Assembly: GCA_964455525.1 (NCBI GenBank)
Contig: CAYVWR010000006.1
Coordinates: 261,388-325,387, forward strand
Direction: 5' to 3'
Length of the DNA stretch: 64,000 bases
Source of the DNA: an uncultured Alphaproteobacteria bacterium
GTDB taxonomy: Bacteria; Bacteroidota; Ignavibacteria; OLB7
Positions within the stretch are counted from its first letter, which is position 1. The number at the start of each line of letters is the position of its first letter. Position numbers and translations under genes: made by a program. This document shows, piece after piece, positions 2,640-27,257 of this stretch. The notes beneath the pieces are model-generated. The model had not been told where the DNA came from, ran no database searches, and saw only the letters and a program-made list of their open reading frames with translations.

Positions 2640-4109
2640 ATGACTATTGACGGTATTCCTGGCGAGGCCAAGCCACGCCGTCGCAGGCGCTGGTACTGGT
2701 ATTTCGGCATCTGCGTACTGATACTATGCGCCTGGCAGGTAACTGCCTGGCTTGCACCGGTGCCTGCCCCGCTGGCCTCGGCGGCAGCCGTCACCGACCA
2801 GGTATACGAGGCGGTCTATGATGATGCGATCATGGGCCGGGCCGAAAAACTCCCACGCGAGGTCAACATCCTTCTGGTTGGCCTTGACAATCGGATTTCC
2901 TCCACCGATAATCATGCCGACGCCATTCATCTTATCTCCATCCGTACCAAGGATTCTATCGGCGCCACCATCACCTCGATCCCGCGTGGCACCGAGGTAG
3001 AGGGCTTCGGCATCTCGGACGATCTATCCTTTATGGCCAATGTGCGAGCCTTGAAAGGGCGCAAGGCATTGACGAAGGCAGTAGCAAAGCTTACCAGGAA
3101 GAAAAAGATCGATTATTATGTCGAGGTTACCTTCAGCCAAGTGATGGGCGTGCTGGAGCTGCTCGGCTTCAAAGACCCCGCAACCGCTCTGCAATACCTC
3201 CGCCACCGCAAGACCTATGCGCTGGGCGATGTGCAGCGAAGCTACAATCAGGGGAAGTTTCTTCGCCACCAGGCAATCCGCCGGGGCGATCTGCTCACCG
3301 GCGCCAAAGGCGACATCCTTCTCCGTATGGGCCTTGGCATGGTTGATACCGATCTCGATATGGAGACCGCACAGGCACTGGTCTATCTGCTGAAAAACAA
3401 CGACGCGCTGACCGATTCGCGCATCGACGTTACAATGATGCCCAAGGTGAATCTTGCCCGGCTGGAGAAAGAGGCAGAGATACCTGACCCGGAACAGATC
3501 GGTGAGGTGGTCAACAAACTGGTCCGCAGAACCGGCGACGCGATCGACGATCTTGGACGCTATAATCCCTATCCCCGCCTGAAGGAGCTGGTAGGACGTG
3601 CCGCCGCACAGAAAAGCCCGAAGGCAACCGTGGCCGCGCTCCAGGTTACCTATGCACAAAAGGCATGGCTCCAGATTCAGGAACGTCCCCAACGTCGTGA
3701 AATTCGCGATCGCGTGGAGGATCTGCTCATCAAGGCGTATACCGATCTGAAGAAGCCGGACAAGGCAGAGGACGTACGGAAGTATATGGAAGAGGAACGG
3801 AAGGCATTTGCCGAAGCCGAACGGGAGCATCGGCGGTTCTCCTATGGACGCCGAGCCGTACCGGCACGGAGAGAAACGCTGAACCCGGAGGCAGCCGCCC
3901 GTGCAAAGAGCGATGATATCGGCCAGAAGCAGACCCATATCGAGCCGCAGGCACCAACGGCGCCCCCGGCCGAACCGCAGCAACAACCGGTTGTGGAGAC
4001 TGTGCCGGAAAAGGAGCTGACAAACCAGATCGGCCCCCACCGCGAAGAGGCAAAGCAGCAGAGCGATGGACCACAGGTCCATGATATCAAGGAGGATGGG
4101 AAACAGTAA
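2640..4109 (+). CDS. LytR-CpsA-Psr (LCP) family cell-envelope protein with an N-terminal transmembrane segment and a long charged low-complexity C-terminal tail
   Basis: N-terminal RRRRRWYWYFGICVLIL membrane anchor. LCP core motifs NILLVGLDNR...DAIHLISI...ITSIPRGTEV. The C-terminal ~190 aa is rich in K/E/R/Q/P. Confidence 0.7.
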   Translation: MTIDGIPGEAKPRRRRRWYWYFGICVLILCAWQVTAWLAPVPAPLASAAAVTDQVYEAVYDDAIMGRAEKLPREVNILLVGLDNRISSTDNHADAIHLISIRTKDSIGATITSIPRGTEVEGFGISDDLSFMANVRALKGRKALTKAVAKLTRKKKIDYYVEVTFSQVMGVLELLGFKDPATALQYLRHRKTYALGDVQRSYNQGKFLRHQAIRRGDLLTGAKGDILLRMGLGMVDTDLDMETAQALVYLLKNNDALTDSRIDVTMMPKVNLARLEKEAEIPDPEQIGEVVNKLVRRTGDAIDDLGRYNPYPRLKELVGRAAAQKSPKATVAALQVTYAQKAWLQIQERPQRREIRDRVEDLLIKAYTDLKKPDKAEDVRKYMEEERKAFAEAEREHRRFSYGRRAVPARRETLNPEAAARAKSDDIGQKQTHIEPQAPTAPPAEPQQQPVVETVPEKELTNQIGPHREEAKQQSDGPQVHDIKEDGKQ

Positions 4110-5482: not shown

Positions 5483-6997
5483 ATGATCAGCAAGAAACTA
5501 TTCAGCACGATACTAGCCTTGATGATCGGCGGCCTGTCGGCGGCGTTCGCACAGAATCCGCAGGTCCCGAACCGTACAGACGTGCAGATCACCCCACTGG
5601 CGACAAATTCGTCGGATGATGATTTTGCACCGGTTGTGCTCCGTGGCGGGCAAACCCTGATCTTTACATCCGCACGCTCCGGCGAGCAACGCATCTGGCG
5701 CGCCGAACGAGGGTCGGGCGGCTGGGATATGCCGGTAGCGGCAGCCCCCACGCTCGACGCCGCAAAACATATCGGCGCGGCCACCCTTACCCCGGATGGC
5801 ACGTTTATGATCTTTGCCGCCTACGATTGGGATGATGTGGACTCGCTTCGTGGCTATGGCCGAACCGATCTCTATTCCGCCGAACTGGTTCGGGGCATCT
5901 GGACCAACGTTAAAAATCTCGGTCCCGAGGTGAACAGCTCCTACTGGGATTCCCAGCCCACCCTGAGCGTGGACGGCCGTACCCTCTTTTTTGCAAGCGA
6001 TCGTCCGGGAGGAAAGGGGGGCACCGATATCTATGTCACCACCCGCACGGCCTCCGGCTGGACCCGCCCGGTGAACCTTGGCGATCCGATCAACACACAG
6101 TTCGATGAGATGAGCCCGAGCATCGCCCCGGATAATAAATCGCTCTTCTTCTCCAGCAACGGACATGGCGGCGCCGGTGGCTTTGACCTCTTTGTGGCCA
6201 AGGGTGGAAGCCTTCGGGGAACAGGCTGGACCCAGATCGAGAACATGGGGCTGCCGATCAACTCCGCCGCCAACGACCATTACTTCATCTCGATCCCGAA
6301 CTCGCAGAACAGCTATTTTGCATCCGATCGCAGCGGCGATCTCGATATCTATACGGCCGTGCCCAACCCCTTCCCACCGGAAGCACTCGTAACCGTCTCC
6401 GGCGTTGTTCTCGATCGCGCAAACCGCACACCGATCGCCGCCGATATCACGGTTACCGATCTAAGCTCCGGCGAAGTGGTGGCGAACTATCGGACCGATG
6501 GGCAGAACGGCAACTATTATGTGGTGCTGGCACGCGGCCGCCGCTACTCGATAACGGCAACCGCACCCGATTATATCTTCTACTCCGACGAATATTCGGT
6601 GCCGCCAAACTCGCAGGGACAGGATCTGAAGAAGGATATCGAGCTGAGCCGTCTGGGCCAGGGCACAACCAGGCTCCTCGTCTTCTTCGATTTCGACAAG
6701 TCAGAGCTGAAAGGAGAATCGAAGCCCGATCTTAATCGCGCCATCGAGTTCCTCCGCCAGAATCCGAGCATCACCGTGGAGATCGCCGGACATACCGACT
6801 CGGTGGGCAACGACAGCTATAACAAGAAGCTTTCCCAGAGCCGTGCCGATGCAGTACGGCAGTATCTGATCCAGGGAGGGGTGGAAACGCGAAGGATGGC
6901 GGCGATCGGATATGGCGAAGAGCAGCCGATAGCCTCCAATAGCACCGATGAAGGACGCGCACGCAATCGCCGTGTGGAGATGAGGGTAAAGGAATAA
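5483..6997 (+). CDS. OmpA-family protein with TolB-like (PD40) beta-propeller repeats, a carboxypeptidase-regulatory-like domain and a C-terminal OmpA peptidoglycan-binding domain
   Basis: Signal peptide. Repeated PD40-like segments (DDFAPVV..., SYWDSQPTLSVDGRTLFFASDR..., FDEMSPSIAPDNKSLFFSSN...). The C-terminus LVFFDFDKSEL...AGHTDSVGNDSYNKKLSQSRADAV...GYGEEQP...NRRVE is a canonical OmpA_C domain. Confidence 0.8.
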   Translation: MISKKLFSTILALMIGGLSAAFAQNPQVPNRTDVQITPLATNSSDDDFAPVVLRGGQTLIFTSARSGEQRIWRAERGSGGWDMPVAAAPTLDAAKHIGAATLTPDGTFMIFAAYDWDDVDSLRGYGRTDLYSAELVRGIWTNVKNLGPEVNSSYWDSQPTLSVDGRTLFFASDRPGGKGGTDIYVTTRTASGWTRPVNLGDPINTQFDEMSPSIAPDNKSLFFSSNGHGGAGGFDLFVAKGGSLRGTGWTQIENMGLPINSAANDHYFISIPNSQNSYFASDRSGDLDIYTAVPNPFPPEALVTVSGVVLDRANRTPIAADITVTDLSSGEVVANYRTDGQNGNYYVVLARGRRYSITATAPDYIFYSDEYSVPPNSQGQDLKKDIELSRLGQGTTRLLVFFDFDKSELKGESKPDLNRAIEFLRQNPSITVEIAGHTDSVGNDSYNKKLSQSRADAVRQYLIQGGVETRRMAAIGYGEEQPIASNSTDEGRARNRRVEMRVKE

Positions 6998-22407: not shown

Positions 22408-22861
22408 AACACATCCCTATTCAGGTGAACAATCATCATTCTCATCAACAAGAACGAACCGTGCCTGGCAATAGTACCAGGCACATCGCTTACACTCTGA
22501 AATAATACAGGCCAACGCTCAGAGATGCAATGGATGAGAGCAAATTCAGTGCAAGAAATTCCAGGATGCGGCGAGTAGAGCTGTAGCAGAAACCATTGTG
22601 GGGGAGGATAGTATGCCTGGCAGCACCCCTGAAGACCGATTCGGCATGAACGGAGAGCGGAGCAACAGGGCCAGTTGCTGGCCTGACAGGCTCGTTCCCG
22701 AACGCACATGAACGGAAACTGGGCCAGCGACCGCCCACACCAGGCGCAGAGAATCCTTTGAAGACATCCGTATCACCTGGCGATCAGTTGCAGAGGGGCA
22801 TCCGTGCATAACATCTTATGATGCCCCAGACGCCAGCATACAGTGATGGAAGAGTCCCCTC

Positions 22862-23596
22862 TTGGTCTGGACAAGTGGTTTTTCAGCTATGTGGCTACTA
22901 GCGAACGCGAAGAACGGGATCAGTTCGTACGAGCTGCACCGGGCAATCGGGGTCACCCAGAAGAGCGCATGGTTCATGCTACATCGAATCCGGTTGTCAA
23001 TGGAAGCCGGGACGATTGAGAAGAAGGCTATAGGTGTCTGTGAGGCTGATGAGACCTACATCGGTGGCCGAATCAGCAACATGCATAAGTCGAAGAAGGA
23101 GAAGATGCCAAAGGGCCGGGGGACGGTCGGTAAGGCTATCGTCATGGGGGGATACTGGAGCGAGGAGATGAGGGGAAATTGAGCAGCGTTCGGGCGAAGG
23201 TCATTGAGAACATCCAGCGTGAAACGCTCCACAAGGAGGTTAAGGACAATGTAGATCCCGGTAGTAGCATCTTTACGGATTCTTTGGCATCTTACCAAGG
23301 TCTGGAGGAGGAATACGTCCATAAGTTCGTGGATCATGCAGTTTCGTACGTGGAGGGGATGGTTCATACGAATGGGCTAGAGAACTTCTGGAGTTTGCTG
23401 AAGCGCACGGTACGGGGGACGTATACGCATGTTGACCCGGAGCATCTGTTTCGATAACCGGAAGGATGATGATCAAGGTAGGTTCCTGAATGTAGTGGGA
23501 TCATCAGAGGGGAAACGGATAACCTATAAGGAATTGAAAAAGAAGCCAGAGAAGGACGAAGAGAAGAAGAAGCCGAGGGAAAAGAAGAAGACGTAA
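22862..23596 (+). pseudogene. Decayed IS1595-family (ISXO2-like) transposase. The N-terminus (zinc-finger region) is missing and there are at least two frameshifts (near 23180 and 23455).
   Basis: Frame 2 reads WLLANAKNGISSYELHRAIGVTQKSAWFMLHRIR...EADETYIGG. Frame 1 reads ...HAVSYVEGMVHTNGLENFWSLLKRTV.GTYTHVDPEHLFR. A third frame reads RFL..KRITYKEL. These are the conserved IS1595 HTH/DDE-region blocks split across frames. Confidence 0.7.
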
Positions 23597-24081
23597 TGTT
23601 CCCTGCAATCGCGGGGATGATCCAATACACGGAAGGACCTCATACCCCCACAGGTTTCCAGTAATTCGCCTGTGGGTCACCTTTTCACCAGATATGGAGA
23701 AAGGCGTGTACGAGGTAACAGCCGTGGTCATCGCGATGGCTTATCTCGTCAGAGAGATCAGACTTCTGATCTCTGTCTGGCGTGGATAAGTGAACGGATG
23801 GCACAAAGTATGGTCCCCACTCCGGTGGGGGCCATGACTATATACTGATTATGGGTACATCGAAGAAAGAAAAGGAATCAGAGAGTGAGATGCCAGAGTC
23901 ATGGAAGAAATTCCTTGACATGGCTCGTACGGTTGTGAATGTTCCGAAGGAAAAGATCGAGAAGTTAGAAGAACAGAAGCAGAAGGAGCGTCCTCGTAGC
24001 CAGCAAGATCAAGAAAGGATAGCCGAATAGTTAATTACATCACCCCGGTTGATAAGCGAGTCATCACATTATAGCCGTTGT

Positions 24082-24534
24082 ATGATGAAATTCGATCAGA
24101 TTCACAATGATACCGATTGCAAATGCATCAACAATACTTGTCAGGAGAACACAAGTGATATATTCTGTCGAGCCTTAAAAGGTAAGGACCTTACTGCTAG
24201 TGACTTCATGTCATATTGGGAAGAAGGACGACGTCTCCCTGCACATATCAAGGCAAACTGTGAAGACACATGTGAACGAAAGGGTATATCCATCAACTTA
24301 CTCAATTCAGATAATGAAGAGAATGTCAAAGGAAAATTCAGTAGTATAGTTACGCGAAATATCAAGCCACAGAGAAAGATATTTACTCACTACTGTAAGT
24401 TCAAGTTTGCGGCAGACTGCGGAAAGCTCAAGCATACACCCGGACGTGGCGACCAGTATCATTACACATTTTACAAATGTGATGGGTTCAACATTAAACA
24501 GTTAGAGCATGTCAGCATACTTCCATTGAGCTAA
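24082..24534 (+). CDS. Hypothetical Cys-rich small protein, about 150 aa. The ORF track starts at TTG 24049. First gene of the island operon.
   Basis: Eleven Cys in the listed 161-aa ORF, including CKCINNTC, CEDTC, YCKFKFAADC and YKC, with no recognised family. The stop is followed 1 nt later by the start of the next gene. Confidence 0.45.
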   Translation: MMKFDQIHNDTDCKCINNTCQENTSDIFCRALKGKDLTASDFMSYWEEGRRLPAHIKANCEDTCERKGISINLLNSDNEENVKGKFSSIVTRNIKPQRKIFTHYCKFKFAADCGKLKHTPGRGDQYHYTFYKCDGFNIKQLEHVSILPLS

Positions 24535-24535
24535 A

Positions 24536-25807
24536 ATGTTTGAGATCGAACCATATCGAGAAGTACCAACCGACTTACCTGTTATTAAATCGGAGTACCA
24601 CGTTTTGCATTTCGATGATGAACCTATACTCTATTCTGGGAAGAATAGATATGGGGATATCGTACTTGGCTCCTCCGTTGATGAGGACTATGAAGGACGG
24701 ATTGAGCGTCATTATTGTGTGCCAGTAGACCTCGCTACATACTCGTCTTTCATCAATGGTAATATCAGTTACTATGATATCCTCTGTCAATCAAAGTCAA
24801 TATTCGTCGTTGACAGTGATTTCGATGGGAAGTCATTTCGTACGTACCTGCTACCTCTTGCTGATATCCCTAGCGATTATCTGCCAATGCCAGATTCTTT
24901 CTGTCCTCCCCAACCAGTATCTGAGTCTCTAGCACTATCATTATATGCAAGTCTTAAAGGAAAGCTAGCTGATCAGCACAAAGCCGTGCCATCAGAGCTA
25001 AGCCGGATACAACAGGCACTAGCAGACGTATTAGAAACCGCATTGAATAGCTTGCGGGAACTGACTCAACCCAATTTATATATTGCAGCATACTCTCCGT
25101 CAAGTTTCCGGATTCATTATGAAGTCCAGATGCCAAAACAACTTGACTTCGGCACTCAGGGTTACATCCGCTTCTATAATAAGCTTCTTCGCTTTTGCTT
25201 TAACAATCTGCCCACTGAGATGGCGAAGATTGTCGAGTTGACTCCTGAAATATCCTACAGGTTTGAAGAAATAGTGAATGAGTACAAAGACCTACATAGT
25301 ACAGTATGGGTTGAAAGTGGCAACAAGGAAGCATACTTTCGTGCGCAATTGATTGAGAATGTTGTTGAGATTGCGAACGAATTAAAAGATGCGTCTGATG
25401 CGATAGGTCAGCACTTCACGAATATCTCCATATTTGATGGGGAATCTGATGAAGCATCTAATGTCGTGGGAGTTATTGATGATAATTTTAGAGACGGTAT
25501 TGTTGAGGCTATTGAGATAGCTGGTAGTAAATATTCTAAATTTGAAGCCGATGCAACACCGCAGACGTACGAAATCCAAATTTATTCTTTTAATACTCAT
25601 TCAAGGAAGGGTAGCGCATACGTAATCGTCTCCAATGTTCATGGTGATCGAGAAGTTATTACGACTAGGATTACAGTTCTTGGTGATGAGATCTTAGAAG
25701 AAACGAAATACACAGAAAGCTTACATCACAAGAAAACCATTCAAATCCGGGCGACCGCACATCGAGTAAGGGGTAAGATTACTCGAATGGACATACTGTT
25801 TGATTAA
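24536..25807 (+). CDS. Hypothetical 423-aa protein, second gene of the island operon
   Basis: Long AT-rich ORF with no Walker, HKD or other recognisable catalytic motif. It is probably translationally coupled to the upstream ORF (TAAaATG). Confidence 0.5.
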   Translation: MFEIEPYREVPTDLPVIKSEYHVLHFDDEPILYSGKNRYGDIVLGSSVDEDYEGRIERHYCVPVDLATYSSFINGNISYYDILCQSKSIFVVDSDFDGKSFRTYLLPLADIPSDYLPMPDSFCPPQPVSESLALSLYASLKGKLADQHKAVPSELSRIQQALADVLETALNSLRELTQPNLYIAAYSPSSFRIHYEVQMPKQLDFGTQGYIRFYNKLLRFCFNNLPTEMAKIVELTPEISYRFEEIVNEYKDLHSTVWVESGNKEAYFRAQLIENVVEIANELKDASDAIGQHFTNISIFDGESDEASNVVGVIDDNFRDGIVEAIEIAGSKYSKFEADATPQTYEIQIYSFNTHSRKGSAYVIVSNVHGDREVITTRITVLGDEILEETKYTESLHHKKTIQIRATAHRVRGKITRMDILFD

Positions 25808-25986
25808 GTATCAACCCGTTTCATCACCTCAGCCAGCAGTTCATCAGGTTGCATTTTGAGCTTTCCTGCGATCGAAATGATCCCTCGCAGACACACCTGC
25901 CGTTCTCCTCTCTCTAGCCTTGATATGTAGGAATGATCCATTGTGTCATCATCCTCCAGATCAGCTTGAGTCAAACCAAGCGCCAT
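25804..25986 (-). CDS. XRE-family helix-turn-helix (HTH) DNA-binding protein (short, possibly N-terminally truncated)
   Basis: LGLTQADL.....SYISRLERGER.....L..IA..L is the XRE/Cro-type HTH pattern. It is convergent on and overlaps the 423-aa gene by 4 nt, and is divergent from the next ORF. Confidence 0.55.
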   Translation of the reverse strand: MALGLTQADLEDDDTMDHSYISRLERGERQVCLRGIISIAGKLKMQPDELLAEVMKRVDT

Positions 25987-26022
25987 CCTTCTCTCTCGTA
26001 AGACTATAGCACAGGTAAAAGG

Positions 26023-26484
26023 GTGAAGCTGAACCCTGATGGAACATGGGCCGCACTGGATAACGATAGTACCAGCGGCTTCAATCCCAAGGGGGCGAAA
26101 TTCCTGACCGCTAGAACCAGTAAGCCCACTCAGCTAAAGGGTATGGCCGAGATCATGCCTGATGGTTTGTTTGGCTCTTCGTTCCAAAGCCAAGCTGAAC
26201 AATACTATGCGTTCCGAATCCAGTGTGAGGGATTCCCGGATGGTCGTAGCGTTATGGGCTGTATCCAGCGGGATACACCTGAAGGGGAACGACTCTTTGA
26301 GACATTAAGTGATGGTAAGAAACACAAGGTTGTTTTGGAAATGCGATTTCGGACCAAGGCAGAACAGAAACCGTCTCTCGTACGGATGTACGAGCAGGAC
26401 CCACCCCCTGATATGTTTTATGACAAGAGCCATGTACTAATCACCAAAATAGTTGCGATCGACACATGGTCAGTAGCCAATTAA
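26023..26484 (+). CDS. Hypothetical protein (GTG start in the ORF track), divergent from the XRE gene
   Basis: ORF in the AT-rich island with no recognisable domain. Confidence 0.4.
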   Translation: MKLNPDGTWAALDNDSTSGFNPKGAKFLTARTSKPTQLKGMAEIMPDGLFGSSFQSQAEQYYAFRIQCEGFPDGRSVMGCIQRDTPEGERLFETLSDGKKHKVVLEMRFRTKAEQKPSLVRMYEQDPPPDMFYDKSHVLITKIVAIDTWSVAN

Positions 26485-26610
26485 CGGGAGCTATAATAGC
26501 GAGTGAGGTGGTGACACAATGGAAGACATTATGAGTTTTTCAGTTGGTGATATCCGAGACGATGAGAACTGGATCGAATCATCGGTACGCTGTACCTATT
26601 CCTAAAACAA

Positions 26611-26808
26611 TTGGAGTATGGTGTTAAACTCGGCATCGAGCAGTTAAAGGATAACGCATTTACTGTTCTTGTTGGTCATTTGTGTGGTGTTACGTCTGGG
26701 AAATTCCACGGCCACGAAGTCGCCATCTGTTATCTGAATGAATGGAATTATTCGTCGGCAGTCGGGGCTATGAAAGAACAGCACAAGAAGGAGCTGGGTG
26801 AACTATAG
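26611..26808 (+). CDS. Hypothetical small protein (TTG start), uncertain
   Basis: Only ORF-track support. Confidence 0.2.
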   Translation: MEYGVKLGIEQLKDNAFTVLVGHLCGVTSGKFHGHEVAICYLNEWNYSSAVGAMKEQHKKELGEL

Positions 26809-26892
26809 GAAAAGGAGAAATATGAGAAGACCGCCTTTCAGATGCCGGGCAAGGCTCGGCTTACTGTGACACTACGGGAACAGTAGAATCAA

Positions 26893-26925
26893 ATAGGGCC
26901 TGATCCACCATAGATCAGGCCCTAT
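26893..26925. terminator. Perfect 13-bp hairpin (ATAGGGCCTGATC-caccata-GATCAGGCCCTAT) at the right edge of the island
   Basis: Read directly from the sequence. There is no strong U-run, so it could be a terminator or an island-end structure. Confidence 0.4.
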
Positions 26926-27221
26926 CATATTAACCATAATCCTTCAGGCTAGTCAAGAGCTTGGTGTCTCAAGTATGTTAGTGCCTTTTTTATACCTGTG
27001 GTATTTTTTGGCTTACGAACCCATGCACTGTCAGCTATGATGCTGGATACTCTCAGGGCAAGCAAAACACTATAACATTGTACGATCGGTTGTACCCCTT
27101 GGAGCAACGGGAGCGACAGCAGAGGAGGAGTGCAATAATGGTGGCTGGACAGATATCATGATGGCATGCATATCATGGCCATATGCATGCATATCCCCTC
27201 TACACTGATACTCCCACAACC

Positions 27222-27257
27222 AGCAAAAGGGGCGGCCCGTAACGGACCACCCCTTTC
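27222..27257 (-). terminator. Candidate rho-independent terminator of the dcw operon (minus strand: GAAAGGGG...CCCCTTTT then GCTG)
   Basis: Hairpin AAAGGGG/CCCCTTT with a T4 run on the minus strand about 40 nt after the ftsZ stop. Confidence 0.45.

Follow-up and report, generated by a model that had tools for sequence, protein, structure and literature searches.

The short helix-turn-helix (HTH) gene and the 153-codon open reading frame (ORF) that face each other in this 64-kb stretch of DNA (hereafter the window) are very probably the stumps that one deletion of ~253 bp left in a decaying transposon, rather than a working switch. This conclusion of gene decay follows from the loss, through the deletion, of both start codons and of the control region between them. 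The element concerned is a copy of an IS1595-family transposon that extends from ~22.85 kb to position 26,985, just downstream of ftsZ. The first-pass annotation had suggested that an XRE-type HTH protein, possibly truncated, might repress the adjacent divergent gene: the truncation is real, and intact relatives do show the divergent layout with a putative operator, but the pair found here does not appear to be a working repressor and its target.

Two truncated genes facing each other across a deletion junction

The HTH ORF (25804-25986, minus strand) encodes 60 aa and begins at the ancestral Met31. Alignment with nine homologues of ~90 aa delimits at 25804-26025 (minus strand) the 5′-truncated remnant of a gene encoding an XRE regulator similar to controller (C) proteins; the XRE-type HTH protein of 60 aa initially annotated is real and lies exactly where it was placed. 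Its score against the Pfam profile HTH_3 (PF01381) is 24.5 bits for a cut-off of 23 and covers profile positions 7-55 only; once the in-frame codons located 5′ of the ATG (IVLRERR) are included, the score reaches 32 bits and the match covers positions 1-54. Intact homologues (86-98 aa for the nine from databases and six derived from loci) have the N-terminus MPRPVNPLKIP...PELAFAVVLRERR-M, whose last Met corresponds to the ATG of the window, and all 15 share the motif M-x-R-P-x-x-P-L-K-I-P...P-E-x-A-F-A-x-V-L-R-E-R-R. Helix 1 of this family includes five invariant positions and spans residues 18-32 (AF2 model of P0003, pLDDT 78.9). Since the ATG of the window is the internal Met31 of the homologues, helix 1 is absent from the ORF, and both the HTH_3 match and the homologue alignment indicate that no complete five-helix domain is encoded inside an ORF with a start codon.

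No ATG, GTG or TTG is found in frame 5′ of this ATG, up to the stop codon. The upstream codons are CTT CAC CCT TTT ACC TGT GCT ATA GTC TTA CGA GAG AGA AGG. Homology with the HTH relatives persists over 13 in-frame codons devoid of a start (25987-26025) and stops there; within them, the positions of A21 and F22, two invariant residues of helix 1 in this family, encode T and C, and E19 is absent. A longer HTH protein with a non-canonical start was also considered and rejected, as the upstream codons include no ATG, GTG, TTG, CTG, ATT or ATC and ATA alone occurs. Therefore, the first-pass annotation was right that the first helix is missing and that truncation explains it, whereas its other suggestion, an unusual start, has no usable codon upstream. 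Within the 60 retained codons, which encode helices 2-5, all family-invariant residues are kept, and the dN/dS of the HTH gene is 0.06-0.12.

The facing ORF (26023-26484, plus strand) is likewise a 5′-truncated remnant, in this case of a gene encoding a secreted protein. Its GTG start at 26023, annotated from the outset at 36 bp (25987-26022) from the HTH start, is confirmed in position but corresponds to the ancestral codon Val33 of longer relatives. These relatives (184-190 aa) carry a signal peptide: P0002 (184 aa) is 71% identical to the product of the ORF and has 32 additional N-terminal residues, and in P0035, P0037, P0036 and P0051 the signal peptide is followed by QEIAxTExGK..LNPDGTW. 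DUF3157 gives only sub-threshold matches, at the N-terminal LNPDGTW region of some of these relatives. The ORF contains no internal stop codon and its comparison with L001, a locus carrying an intact transposon, gives a pN of 0.19 and a pS of 0.81. Like the low dN/dS of the HTH gene, these values point to a real gene prior to the deletion.

Two blastn alignments connect the window to L001: 25820-26018 matches 2387-2585 (85% identity, including the HTH gene) and 26011-26553 matches 2839-3378. They overlap by 8 nt, which places the deletion junction at 26011-26018, where the sequences were read directly. It follows from these alignments that ~253 bp of L001, comprising the 5′ ends of both genes and a 114-bp intergenic region, are absent from the window. 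This size is approximate, as the sole reference for the pre-deletion state, L001, is only 69-85% identical in DNA; a search of metagenomes for a more closely related intact copy gave just three distant loci, and therefore this state is known from L001 only. The 8 nt of the junction (acaggtaa) can be aligned with either edge of the missing segment, which indicates microhomology as the probable cause of the deletion.

The opposite polarity, in which the short forms would be functional alleles, either ancestral or alternative, with the ~253 bp of L001 as an insertion, is extremely improbable. It could draw on the fact that both neighbours are intact in one locus only, L001. However, ~15 independent HTH homologues from at least five lineages have the long N-terminus and the invariant helix-1 residues, no fewer than four proteins related to the 153-aa ORF carry a signal peptide, and the 13 homologous codons devoid of a start are still present upstream of the ATG of the window. 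Taken together, these sequence comparisons effectively refute an insertion in L001.

The events that would have led to the present arrangement can be outlined as follows. In intact copies, a C-like XRE regulator gene (~90 aa) is divergent from an operon in which a variable gene comes first and a conserved gene of ~148 codons second, with a 16-bp palindrome, the putative operator, at a fixed place (-49..-34) upstream of the regulator start. In the lineage of the window, a deletion of ~253 bp, probably mediated by microhomology, then took away (i) codons 1-30 of the regulator gene, and thus nearly all of helix 1, (ii) the whole divergent promoter/operator region, (iii) the start codon of the facing gene, and (iv) its signal peptide. 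Both remnants owe their annotation as ORFs solely to codons that happen to follow the junction, namely an internal Met codon (HTH) and an internal Val codon, GTG (153-aa ORF). Most likely, neither of them is expressed as a functional protein and nothing is regulated here; we infer that both are non-functional. The sequence is identical in all seven metagenome or genome contigs that carry both ORFs, and therefore the arrangement is stably inherited. Since the HTH remnant keeps its invariant residues and the 153-aa ORF is free of internal stops, the deletion may be recent; alternatively, there may be residual selection on the remnants.

A regulator family similar to controller proteins and its putative operator

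The HTH family is closest to the C proteins of restriction-modification (R-M) systems, such as C.AhdI, C.Esp1396I, C.BclI and C.PvuII. The family profile matches C.AhdI (1y7y) at 2.7e-12 and C.Esp1396I at 2e-8, the HTH protein matches the PADLOC Control_protein profile at 2.6e-9, and the top Foldseek matches include C.AhdI (39% identity), C.BclI and C.Esp1396I. Homologues of C proteins carried by mobile elements outside R-M systems have already been documented (PMC2632904). Furthermore, 5′ of their own start, the relatives carry a palindrome whose GNCT..AGNC half-sites recall the C-boxes GACT-N3-AGTC described, together with leaderless C mRNAs, for C proteins (PMC2175313, PMC2632904). This 16-bp palindrome (CTTGNCTATAGNCAAG) is found at -49..-34 from the HTH start in L001, L002, L006, L007, L008, L019 and L020, and variant palindromes stand in its place in L010 and L017/L018; it is the putative operator of the regulator. 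The HTH gene of intact relatives has no Shine-Dalgarno sequence but a conserved TAGTTT at -12..-7, and its mRNA is possibly leaderless.

However, this family differs from known C proteins in several respects: (i) relatives have a single 16-bp palindrome of even symmetry instead of the canonical double C-box (PMC2175313), (ii) this palindrome ends 34 nt from the start codon compared to 17-18 nt, (iii) 17 additional residues (MPRPVNPLKIP...) extend the N-terminus of the proteins, (iv) the HTH gene is convergent with cargo and divergent from another operon, with no co-transcribed restriction endonuclease (REase) gene after it, and (v) the copy of the window is truncated and devoid of operator. 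The window contains neither a methyltransferase nor a REase gene. L001 does have a Mrr_cat gene nearby, but it is convergent with the HTH gene, and a co-directional gene downstream of the HTH gene is present in L017/L018 only, where it encodes a HEPN-like protein.

The likeness to XRE antitoxins (HipB, HigA, Y4mF) is a weak match at the level of the HTH, far below the cut-off (27 bits for TIGR03070 compared to 71.65). Unlike in type II toxin-antitoxin (TA) systems, a co-directional toxin gene is lacking, the neighbours in the window being convergent or divergent; moreover, the neighbours are variable, and the one found here goes back to a gene for a secreted protein. What faces the HTH gene varies between loci (184, 481, 353, 213, 477 or 312 aa), and therefore the regulator has no conserved toxin partner. 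The antitoxin-like control initially suggested for this pair is thus contradicted both by this variability and by the origin of the 153-aa ORF in a gene for a protein with a signal peptide.

The family palindrome has no copy in the 64-kb window, even when three mismatches are allowed, and no inverted or direct repeat of at least 8 nt occurs in 25960-26060, i.e., the 36-bp spacer and its flanks. The search for a palindromic operator in this spacer, recommended by the first-pass annotation, was therefore carried out and found none. A divergent pair with an operator in between does describe the intact relatives, which have the palindrome, but not the window, where the interval consists of a junction between two internal starts.

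These data bear on the possibility that the short XRE protein is a working repressor that recognizes an operator in the 36-bp spacer and controls the 153-aa gene, as an antitoxin or a phage repressor would. The ORFs and their geometry are real, the HTH_3 score lies just over the Pfam cut-off (24.5 versus 23 bits), helices 2-5 keep all their invariant residues, and intact relatives combine the divergent layout with an operator-like palindrome. However, the spacer and its surroundings contain no palindrome or repeat, both ORFs start at codons that lie inside longer ancestral genes, helix 1 with its five family-invariant positions is missing, the 153-aa product would lack a signal peptide, and the facing gene is not constant across loci. 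We consider such a repressor very unlikely.

Cargo genes and transcription around the remnants

The gene convergent with the HTH remnant (24536-25807, plus strand; 423 aa) is an intact cargo gene of the element whose product is probably a distant relative of the toxin PD-T4-10B. Its family includes 17 full-length homologues (407-438 aa), and all 18 members match PADLOC PD-T4-10_B (best 1.4e-9); for the protein of the window (1.2e-7), the match is partial, with residues 30-128 aligned on positions 29-125 of a model of 353. A small partner gene (24049-24534, plus strand), whose homologues are found directly upstream of the homologues of the 423-aa gene, precedes it. Its true start is likely Met13 at 24085, giving a protein of 149 aa, and its homologues in L011 and L012 have 147 and 141 aa (34-44% identity). 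PD-T4-10 has been described as an abortive-infection system of two genes that resembles a TA system (Vassallo et al. 2022, PMC9519451). As in this system, the 149/423-aa pair forms a two-gene operon of abutting ORFs, the small gene being first and the large one second. However, the match of the 423-aa family spans only ~100 N-terminal residues (E 1e-7 to 1e-9) and no similarity to PD-T4-10A was detected for the small partner (no PADLOC match at E <= 1). Toxicity and phage defence are only putative. Nothing significant was found in Pfam, NCBIfam, PHROGs or PADLOC for the small partner, the 153-aa ORF or the conserved 148-aa gene.

The stop codon of the 423-aa gene (TAA, 25805-25807, plus strand) and that of the HTH ORF (TAA, 25806-25804, minus strand) overlap, and the two genes therefore share 4 nt (TTAA, 25804-25807). 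This convergent overlap had been correctly described, but the antisense coupling suggested as a possible consequence is not upheld. In relatives, the 3′ end of the HTH gene is separated by 16-29 nt from unrelated cargo genes, so the 4-nt overlap is not conserved, and no XRE gene neighbours the homologues of the 423-aa gene in L011 and L012; antisense coupling is therefore a feature of neither family. A role of the HTH protein as regulator of the 423-aa module was rejected on similar grounds, since the modules of L011 and L012 are devoid of XRE gene and the HTH homologues adjoin unrelated cargo.

A minus-strand RNA that would start at a cryptic or read-through promoter, run through the HTH remnant and, as an antisense of the 3′ end of the 423-aa gene, modulate the PD-T4-10B-like module was also considered. 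No terminator separates the two genes, which overlap tail to tail by 4 nt, and weak promoter-like sites are present on the minus strand (26774-26747 and 26956-26927). However, such sites are no commoner than in shuffled sequence (9 compared to 7.2 +/- 3.0 expected), and two strong minus-strand hairpins located between ftsZ and the HTH remnant (27229-27253 and 26893-26925) should block read-through from ftsZ. Given also the lack of conservation of the overlap and the absence of a convergent neighbour beside the homologues of the 423-aa gene, we regard this antisense RNA as very unlikely. The hairpin at 26893-26925, just 3′ of the remnant of the 148-aa gene, has a stem of 13-16 bp and folds on both strands (minus: -26.6 kcal/mol, z -5.9; plus: -23.1 kcal/mol, z -6.1), and it resembles a bidirectional terminator. 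A scan for sigma-70-type consensus sequences found no promoter at the junction, and the remnants have no obvious source of transcription. On the other hand, both the HTH ATG (GAGAGAAGG) and the GTG (AGGTAAAAGG) have a weak Shine-Dalgarno-like purine run upstream.

A decaying copy of a transposon family with variable cargo

Besides the deletion that left the two stumps, the element carries several other lesions. Its IS1595-family transposase gene (22853-23527, plus strand), recognized from fragments matching Pfam DDE_Tnp_IS1595 (2.6e-23), is a pseudogene that lacks the N-terminal ~85 residues, including the Zn ribbon, and has two frameshifts, its segments lying in frames +2, +1 and +2; tblastn with the transposases of L002 and L009 likewise gives three segments in two frames, from query residue 86. 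It is followed by a Lys/Glu-rich backbone ORF of 59 aa (23851-24030, plus strand), conserved downstream of the transposase gene (70% identity over 23 residues with a 62-aa ORF that takes this position in L002). Another backbone gene (146-165 aa) is represented by a pseudogene (26519-26886, plus strand; tblastn and three-frame translation) with a frameshifting internal deletion of ~23 codons and a premature in-frame stop (26806-26808); tblastn aligns it to residues 49-148 only of the 148-aa protein of L001, its N-terminal piece being in another frame.

The right terminal inverted repeat (IR; GGCACTAACATACTTGAGACACC; 26963-26985, minus strand) is unique in the window, none being expected by chance. 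Its homologue occurs at the corresponding place in L006, L020 and L002, and 17 of 26 positions are identical to the IR of L001. Its left partner is absent from the window, and neither L002 nor L009 showed a convincing pair of IRs. By comparison, L001 carries 11 genes besides that of the transposase (6.5 kb) and is bounded by 25-bp terminal inverted repeats (23/25 matching) and by an 8-bp target duplication, TTATGAAT, which however lies in a tandem-repeat target. No tRNA or known RNA was found in the island of the window.

Other elements of this family occur in MAGs of Kapaibacteria, Ignavibacteria and Chlorobiota. They resemble known IS1595 elements by their DDE_Tnp_IS1595 transposase with a Zn ribbon, and the copy of the window keeps one homologous terminal repeat. 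They differ from them by a large passenger load that includes a regulator and a variable slot with defence-type genes. The copy of the window is moreover dead, its transposase gene being frameshifted and truncated and its left end missing. The HTH family belongs to the backbone of this IS1595-type transposon family and is not part of the neighbouring PD-T4-10B-like pair.

These results have practical consequences: annotations should mark both the 60-aa "XRE regulator" and the 153-aa "hypothetical protein" as 5′-truncated pseudogene fragments, and the 36-bp spacer is not a place for operator searches. More generally, divergent ORFs separated by a tiny spacer, one of them lacking its first helix, may be stumps left by one and the same deletion, and one intact relative suffices to expose it.

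The object of interest is thus the transposon family behind the scar and not the scar itself. This work reveals a previously undescribed transposon backbone of Chlorobiota and Ignavibacteria that combines an IS1595 transposase, a C-like regulator with its putative operator, a 148-aa gene and variable defence cargo, and that is open to study in intact copies such as L001. In this lineage (Kapaibacteria, Ignavibacteria and Chlorobiota), a swap-in slot adjoins the 3′ end of the regulator gene and contains, depending on the copy, a gene for a Mrr-like nuclease, a PD-T4-10B-like toxin pair, a gene for a HEPN protein, or nothing. C proteins time the expression of restriction enzymes. By analogy, we tentatively suggest that the C-like regulator of this lineage, which would also be an autoregulator, might time the expression of backbone or cargo genes after entry into a new cell, in which case these transposons would be self-regulated shuttles of defence genes.

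Truncation of two divergent genes by one deletion

All three ORFs of the region lie exactly where the first-pass annotation had placed them: the 60-aa XRE-type HTH ORF occupies 25804-25986 on the minus strand and starts with ATG, the 423-aa ORF ends at 25807 on the plus strand and the 153-aa ORF starts with a GTG at 26023 on the plus strand. The stop codons of the HTH and 423-aa ORFs share the tetranucleotide TTAA (25804-25807), hence their 4-nt convergent overlap, and the GTG of the 153-aa ORF and the HTH start codon lie on either side of a 36-bp divergent spacer.

The suspected truncation of the HTH protein was right. The 60-aa product only narrowly passes the Pfam HTH_3 threshold (24.5 bits vs 23; profile positions 7-55). 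Adding the in-frame codons that precede the ATG lifts the score to 32 bits and carries the match to position 1, so these codons (…HPFTCAIVLRERR-M) still code for the last part of helix 1. This frame contains no ATG, GTG or TTG as far as the upstream stop. A search of the extended translation against 5.8 billion proteins retrieved nine close homologues (63-82% identity), all of 89-95 aa and sharing the N-terminus MPRPVNPLKIPxGKxL(S/T)PExAFAxVLRERR, and the alignment equates the ATG of the window with their internal Met31. The AlphaFold model of the closest homologue, P0003 (mean pLDDT 78.9), contains five helices (residues 18-32, 37-41, 48-55, 63-72 and 77-89); helix 1 is thus almost entirely absent from the window ORF. 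In a 17-member alignment, five positions of this helix never vary (P18, A21, F22, R27 and R30), and the start-less upstream codons of the window encode T and C in place of A21 and F22 and miss E19. Judged from its sequences, the HTH is a genuine coding family (dN/dS of 0.06-0.12 against three relatives).

The 153-aa ORF is likewise truncated. Its sole close relative, P0002 (184 aa, 71% identical), has 32 extra N-terminal residues that form a signal peptide. An exhaustive phmmer search of 1.8 billion representatives added P0035, P0037, P0036 and P0051, whose common architecture is a signal peptide followed by QEIAxTExGK and then LNPDGTW. The window ORF opens exactly at (M)KLNPDGTW, its GTG being the ancestral Val33 codon. 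With pN of 0.19 and pS of 0.81, it too belongs to a genuine coding family.

A single deletion accounts for both truncations. On L001, a contig carrying a complete copy of the element, the P0002 gene adjoins a full-length HTH gene, divergent as in the window. Blastn aligns window 25820-26018 with L001 2387-2585 (85% identity) and window 26011-26553 with L001 2839-3378 (69% identity), and the intervening segment of L001 (about 253 bp) is missing from the window. It comprises HTH codons 1 to about 18, the 114-bp intergenic region and some 28 codons from the start of the 184-aa gene. Window 26011-26018 (acaggtaa) belongs to both alignments, and the edges of the deletion on L001 read aaaggcaa and acaggcaa; this near-identity suggests that microhomology mediated the deletion. 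An identical sequence, with the same junction, recurs on other contigs. It should also be mentioned that the 7-nt microhomology AGGCAAG (L001:2580-2586 and 2841-2847) matches exactly the right half-site of the candidate operator described below (L001:2675-2689; TTGCCCATAGGCAAG on the HTH strand), an identity that may be due to chance.

Because about 253 bp were lost between the two ORFs, the 36-bp "divergent intergenic region" is a deletion scar. The operator proposed to lie in it was not found, as the junction region contains neither a palindrome nor a repeat of any kind; it is also devoid of any sigma-70-like promoter.

A dead transposon and its variable cargo slot

Sequence comparisons assign the HTH gene to the backbone of an IS1595-type transposon. 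L001:32-6503 is a complete 6.47-kb copy of this family, bounded by 25-bp terminal inverted repeats (32-56 and 6479-6503; 23/25 complementary) and flanked by an 8-bp duplication (TTATGAAT), which could be partly fortuitous since the target lies within an ATGAATT tandem repeat. Beside the transposase, it carries 11 genes including those of a Mrr_cat nuclease, the C-like HTH, the secreted 184-aa protein and the 148-aa protein. The transposase, the HTH and, on the divergent side, a 146-165-aa gene recur in L001, L002, L006, L009 and L020, sometimes with a small Lys/Glu-rich ORF.

What lies between the transposase gene and the HTH 3′ end differs in every locus: the 149/423-aa PD-T4-10B-like pair in the window (slot at 23851-25807), a Mrr_cat nuclease and a 164-aa gene in L001 (1331-2351), 219-aa and 62-aa genes in L002 (8295-9179) and an empty slot in L009 (8213-8243). 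The HTH gene of L017/L018 is followed, co-directionally, by a HEPN_Swt1-like gene (L017:3289-4104). This slot thus looks like a hotspot for defence-type cargo. The 149/423-aa pair (24049-25807; the 149-aa gene probably starts at 24085) is a conserved two-gene module, whose homologues in L012 and a Nitrospirae MAG (L011) stand in unrelated contexts without any XRE neighbour. The PADLOC model of the toxin PD-T4-10B (PD-T4-10_B) matches each of the 18 proteins of the 423-aa family along about 100 N-terminal residues, and the window protein has a weak C-terminal match to DUF7947; the small partner was assigned to no known family. PD-T4-10 itself acts by abortive infection and consists of two genes resembling a toxin-antitoxin pair (PMC9519451). 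Since the module occurs elsewhere without an XRE neighbour, its 4-nt overlap with the HTH gene is an accident of cargo placement (16-29 nt separate the HTH 3′ end from the cargo in relatives), and the antisense coupling with the operon suggested by this overlap does not hold for this locus.

In the window, the element is decaying as a whole and forms an island of low G+C content (0.38-0.50 vs 0.56-0.62 in the flanks). The transposase remnant (22853-23527) lacks its first 85 or so residues and has two frameshifts. The 148-aa gene (26519-26886), a member of the conserved 146-165-aa backbone family, is a pseudogene that has lost about 23 internal codons with a frameshift and has a premature stop (26806-26808); the 65-aa ORF called at 26611-26808 represents one piece of this gene. 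Only the 149/423-aa pair keeps intact reading frames, and only the right terminal repeat survives (26963-26985). The left end was presumably lost within 22408-22852, about 445 bp between the start of a TPR-like 212-aa gene and the transposase remnant that show no similarity to the fetched loci and have no assigned feature; a hairpin, GTGCCTGG-N8-CCAGGCAC, lies there at about 22462-22485.

Two strong minus-strand hairpins separate ftsZ from the HTH remnant, so that read-through transcription from ftsZ is unlikely. The first (about 27229-27253; -25.4 kcal/mol), a GC-rich 14-bp stem followed by TTTT (27225-27253 in all) about 40 nt past the ftsZ stop codon, is likely an intrinsic terminator serving ftsA and ftsZ. 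With a run of just four T, it escaped the consensus scan. The transposon remnant lies immediately past it. The second is located at 26893-26925 (-26.6 kcal/mol).

A C-like regulator and its candidate operator

The sequences preceding the HTH gene were compared across twelve intact loci. In seven of them (L001, L002, L006, L007, L008, L019 and L020), a 16-bp palindrome, CTTGNCTATAGNCAAG, occupies a fixed position, -49 to -34 from the ATG; L010 (GTGCATTTATGCAC) and L017/L018 have different sequences at this position, palindromic all the same. The pattern occurs once per locus where found, and its half-sites vary jointly from locus to locus with symmetry maintained, as expected of an operator co-evolving with its regulator. 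We therefore consider it a candidate operator. It is absent from the whole 64-kb window, even allowing three mismatches.

No Shine-Dalgarno sequence precedes the HTH ATG in relatives (L001:2641-2660 and equivalents in L002, L006 and L020), and a TAGTTT is conserved at -12 to -7 from the start in these four loci, as is a GACG...AGGC(N)AA block between the palindrome and the ATG. This geometry would fit a leaderless HTH mRNA and a weaker proximal operator, as in C.PvuII-type controllers.

The best solved relatives of the family profile are controller (C) proteins of restriction-modification (R-M) systems, C.AhdI (2.7e-12), then C.Esp1396I and C.BclI. Foldseek agrees (39% identity to C.AhdI) and the top PADLOC model is 'Control_protein' (2.6e-9). 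The half-sites GNCT..AGNC recall the C-box, GACT-N3-AGTC (PMC2175313), but the site is a single palindrome of even symmetry, closer to the single-palindrome classes of Sorokin et al., who had also observed that C homologues occur on mobile elements apart from R-M systems (PMC2632904). Since the family lacks a co-transcribed restriction endonuclease, we name it C-like and do not file it among C proteins.

Past the 148-aa gene, L006 (5730-6381) and L009 (6122-6764) encode another XRE protein, a paralogue of 86-88 aa (MSKxxKPEExxTPEQAFAxVIRKRRLELG...), and its gene faces divergently an HTH-like gene of 90-94 aa (MxEMSRGPFRGIYAEIAREKGISRQAI...). These two genes, neither of which is present in the window, may form a two-regulator circuit.

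The first-pass annotation likened the HTH gene to a repressor controlling the facing 153-aa ORF, in an antitoxin-like or phage-repressor-like manner. The ancestor indeed had a regulatory unit, which relatives retain; at the window locus, the promoter, the candidate operator and the starts of both genes went with the deletion of about 253 bp. Neither a repressor-operator-target unit nor an antitoxin-like pair holds as a reading of this locus, and the finding is one of ordinary gene decay inside a dead transposon. What is worth keeping is the transposon family itself, with a C-like regulator beside a variable slot of defence-type cargo, and intact copies such as that of L001 are the best place to study it.
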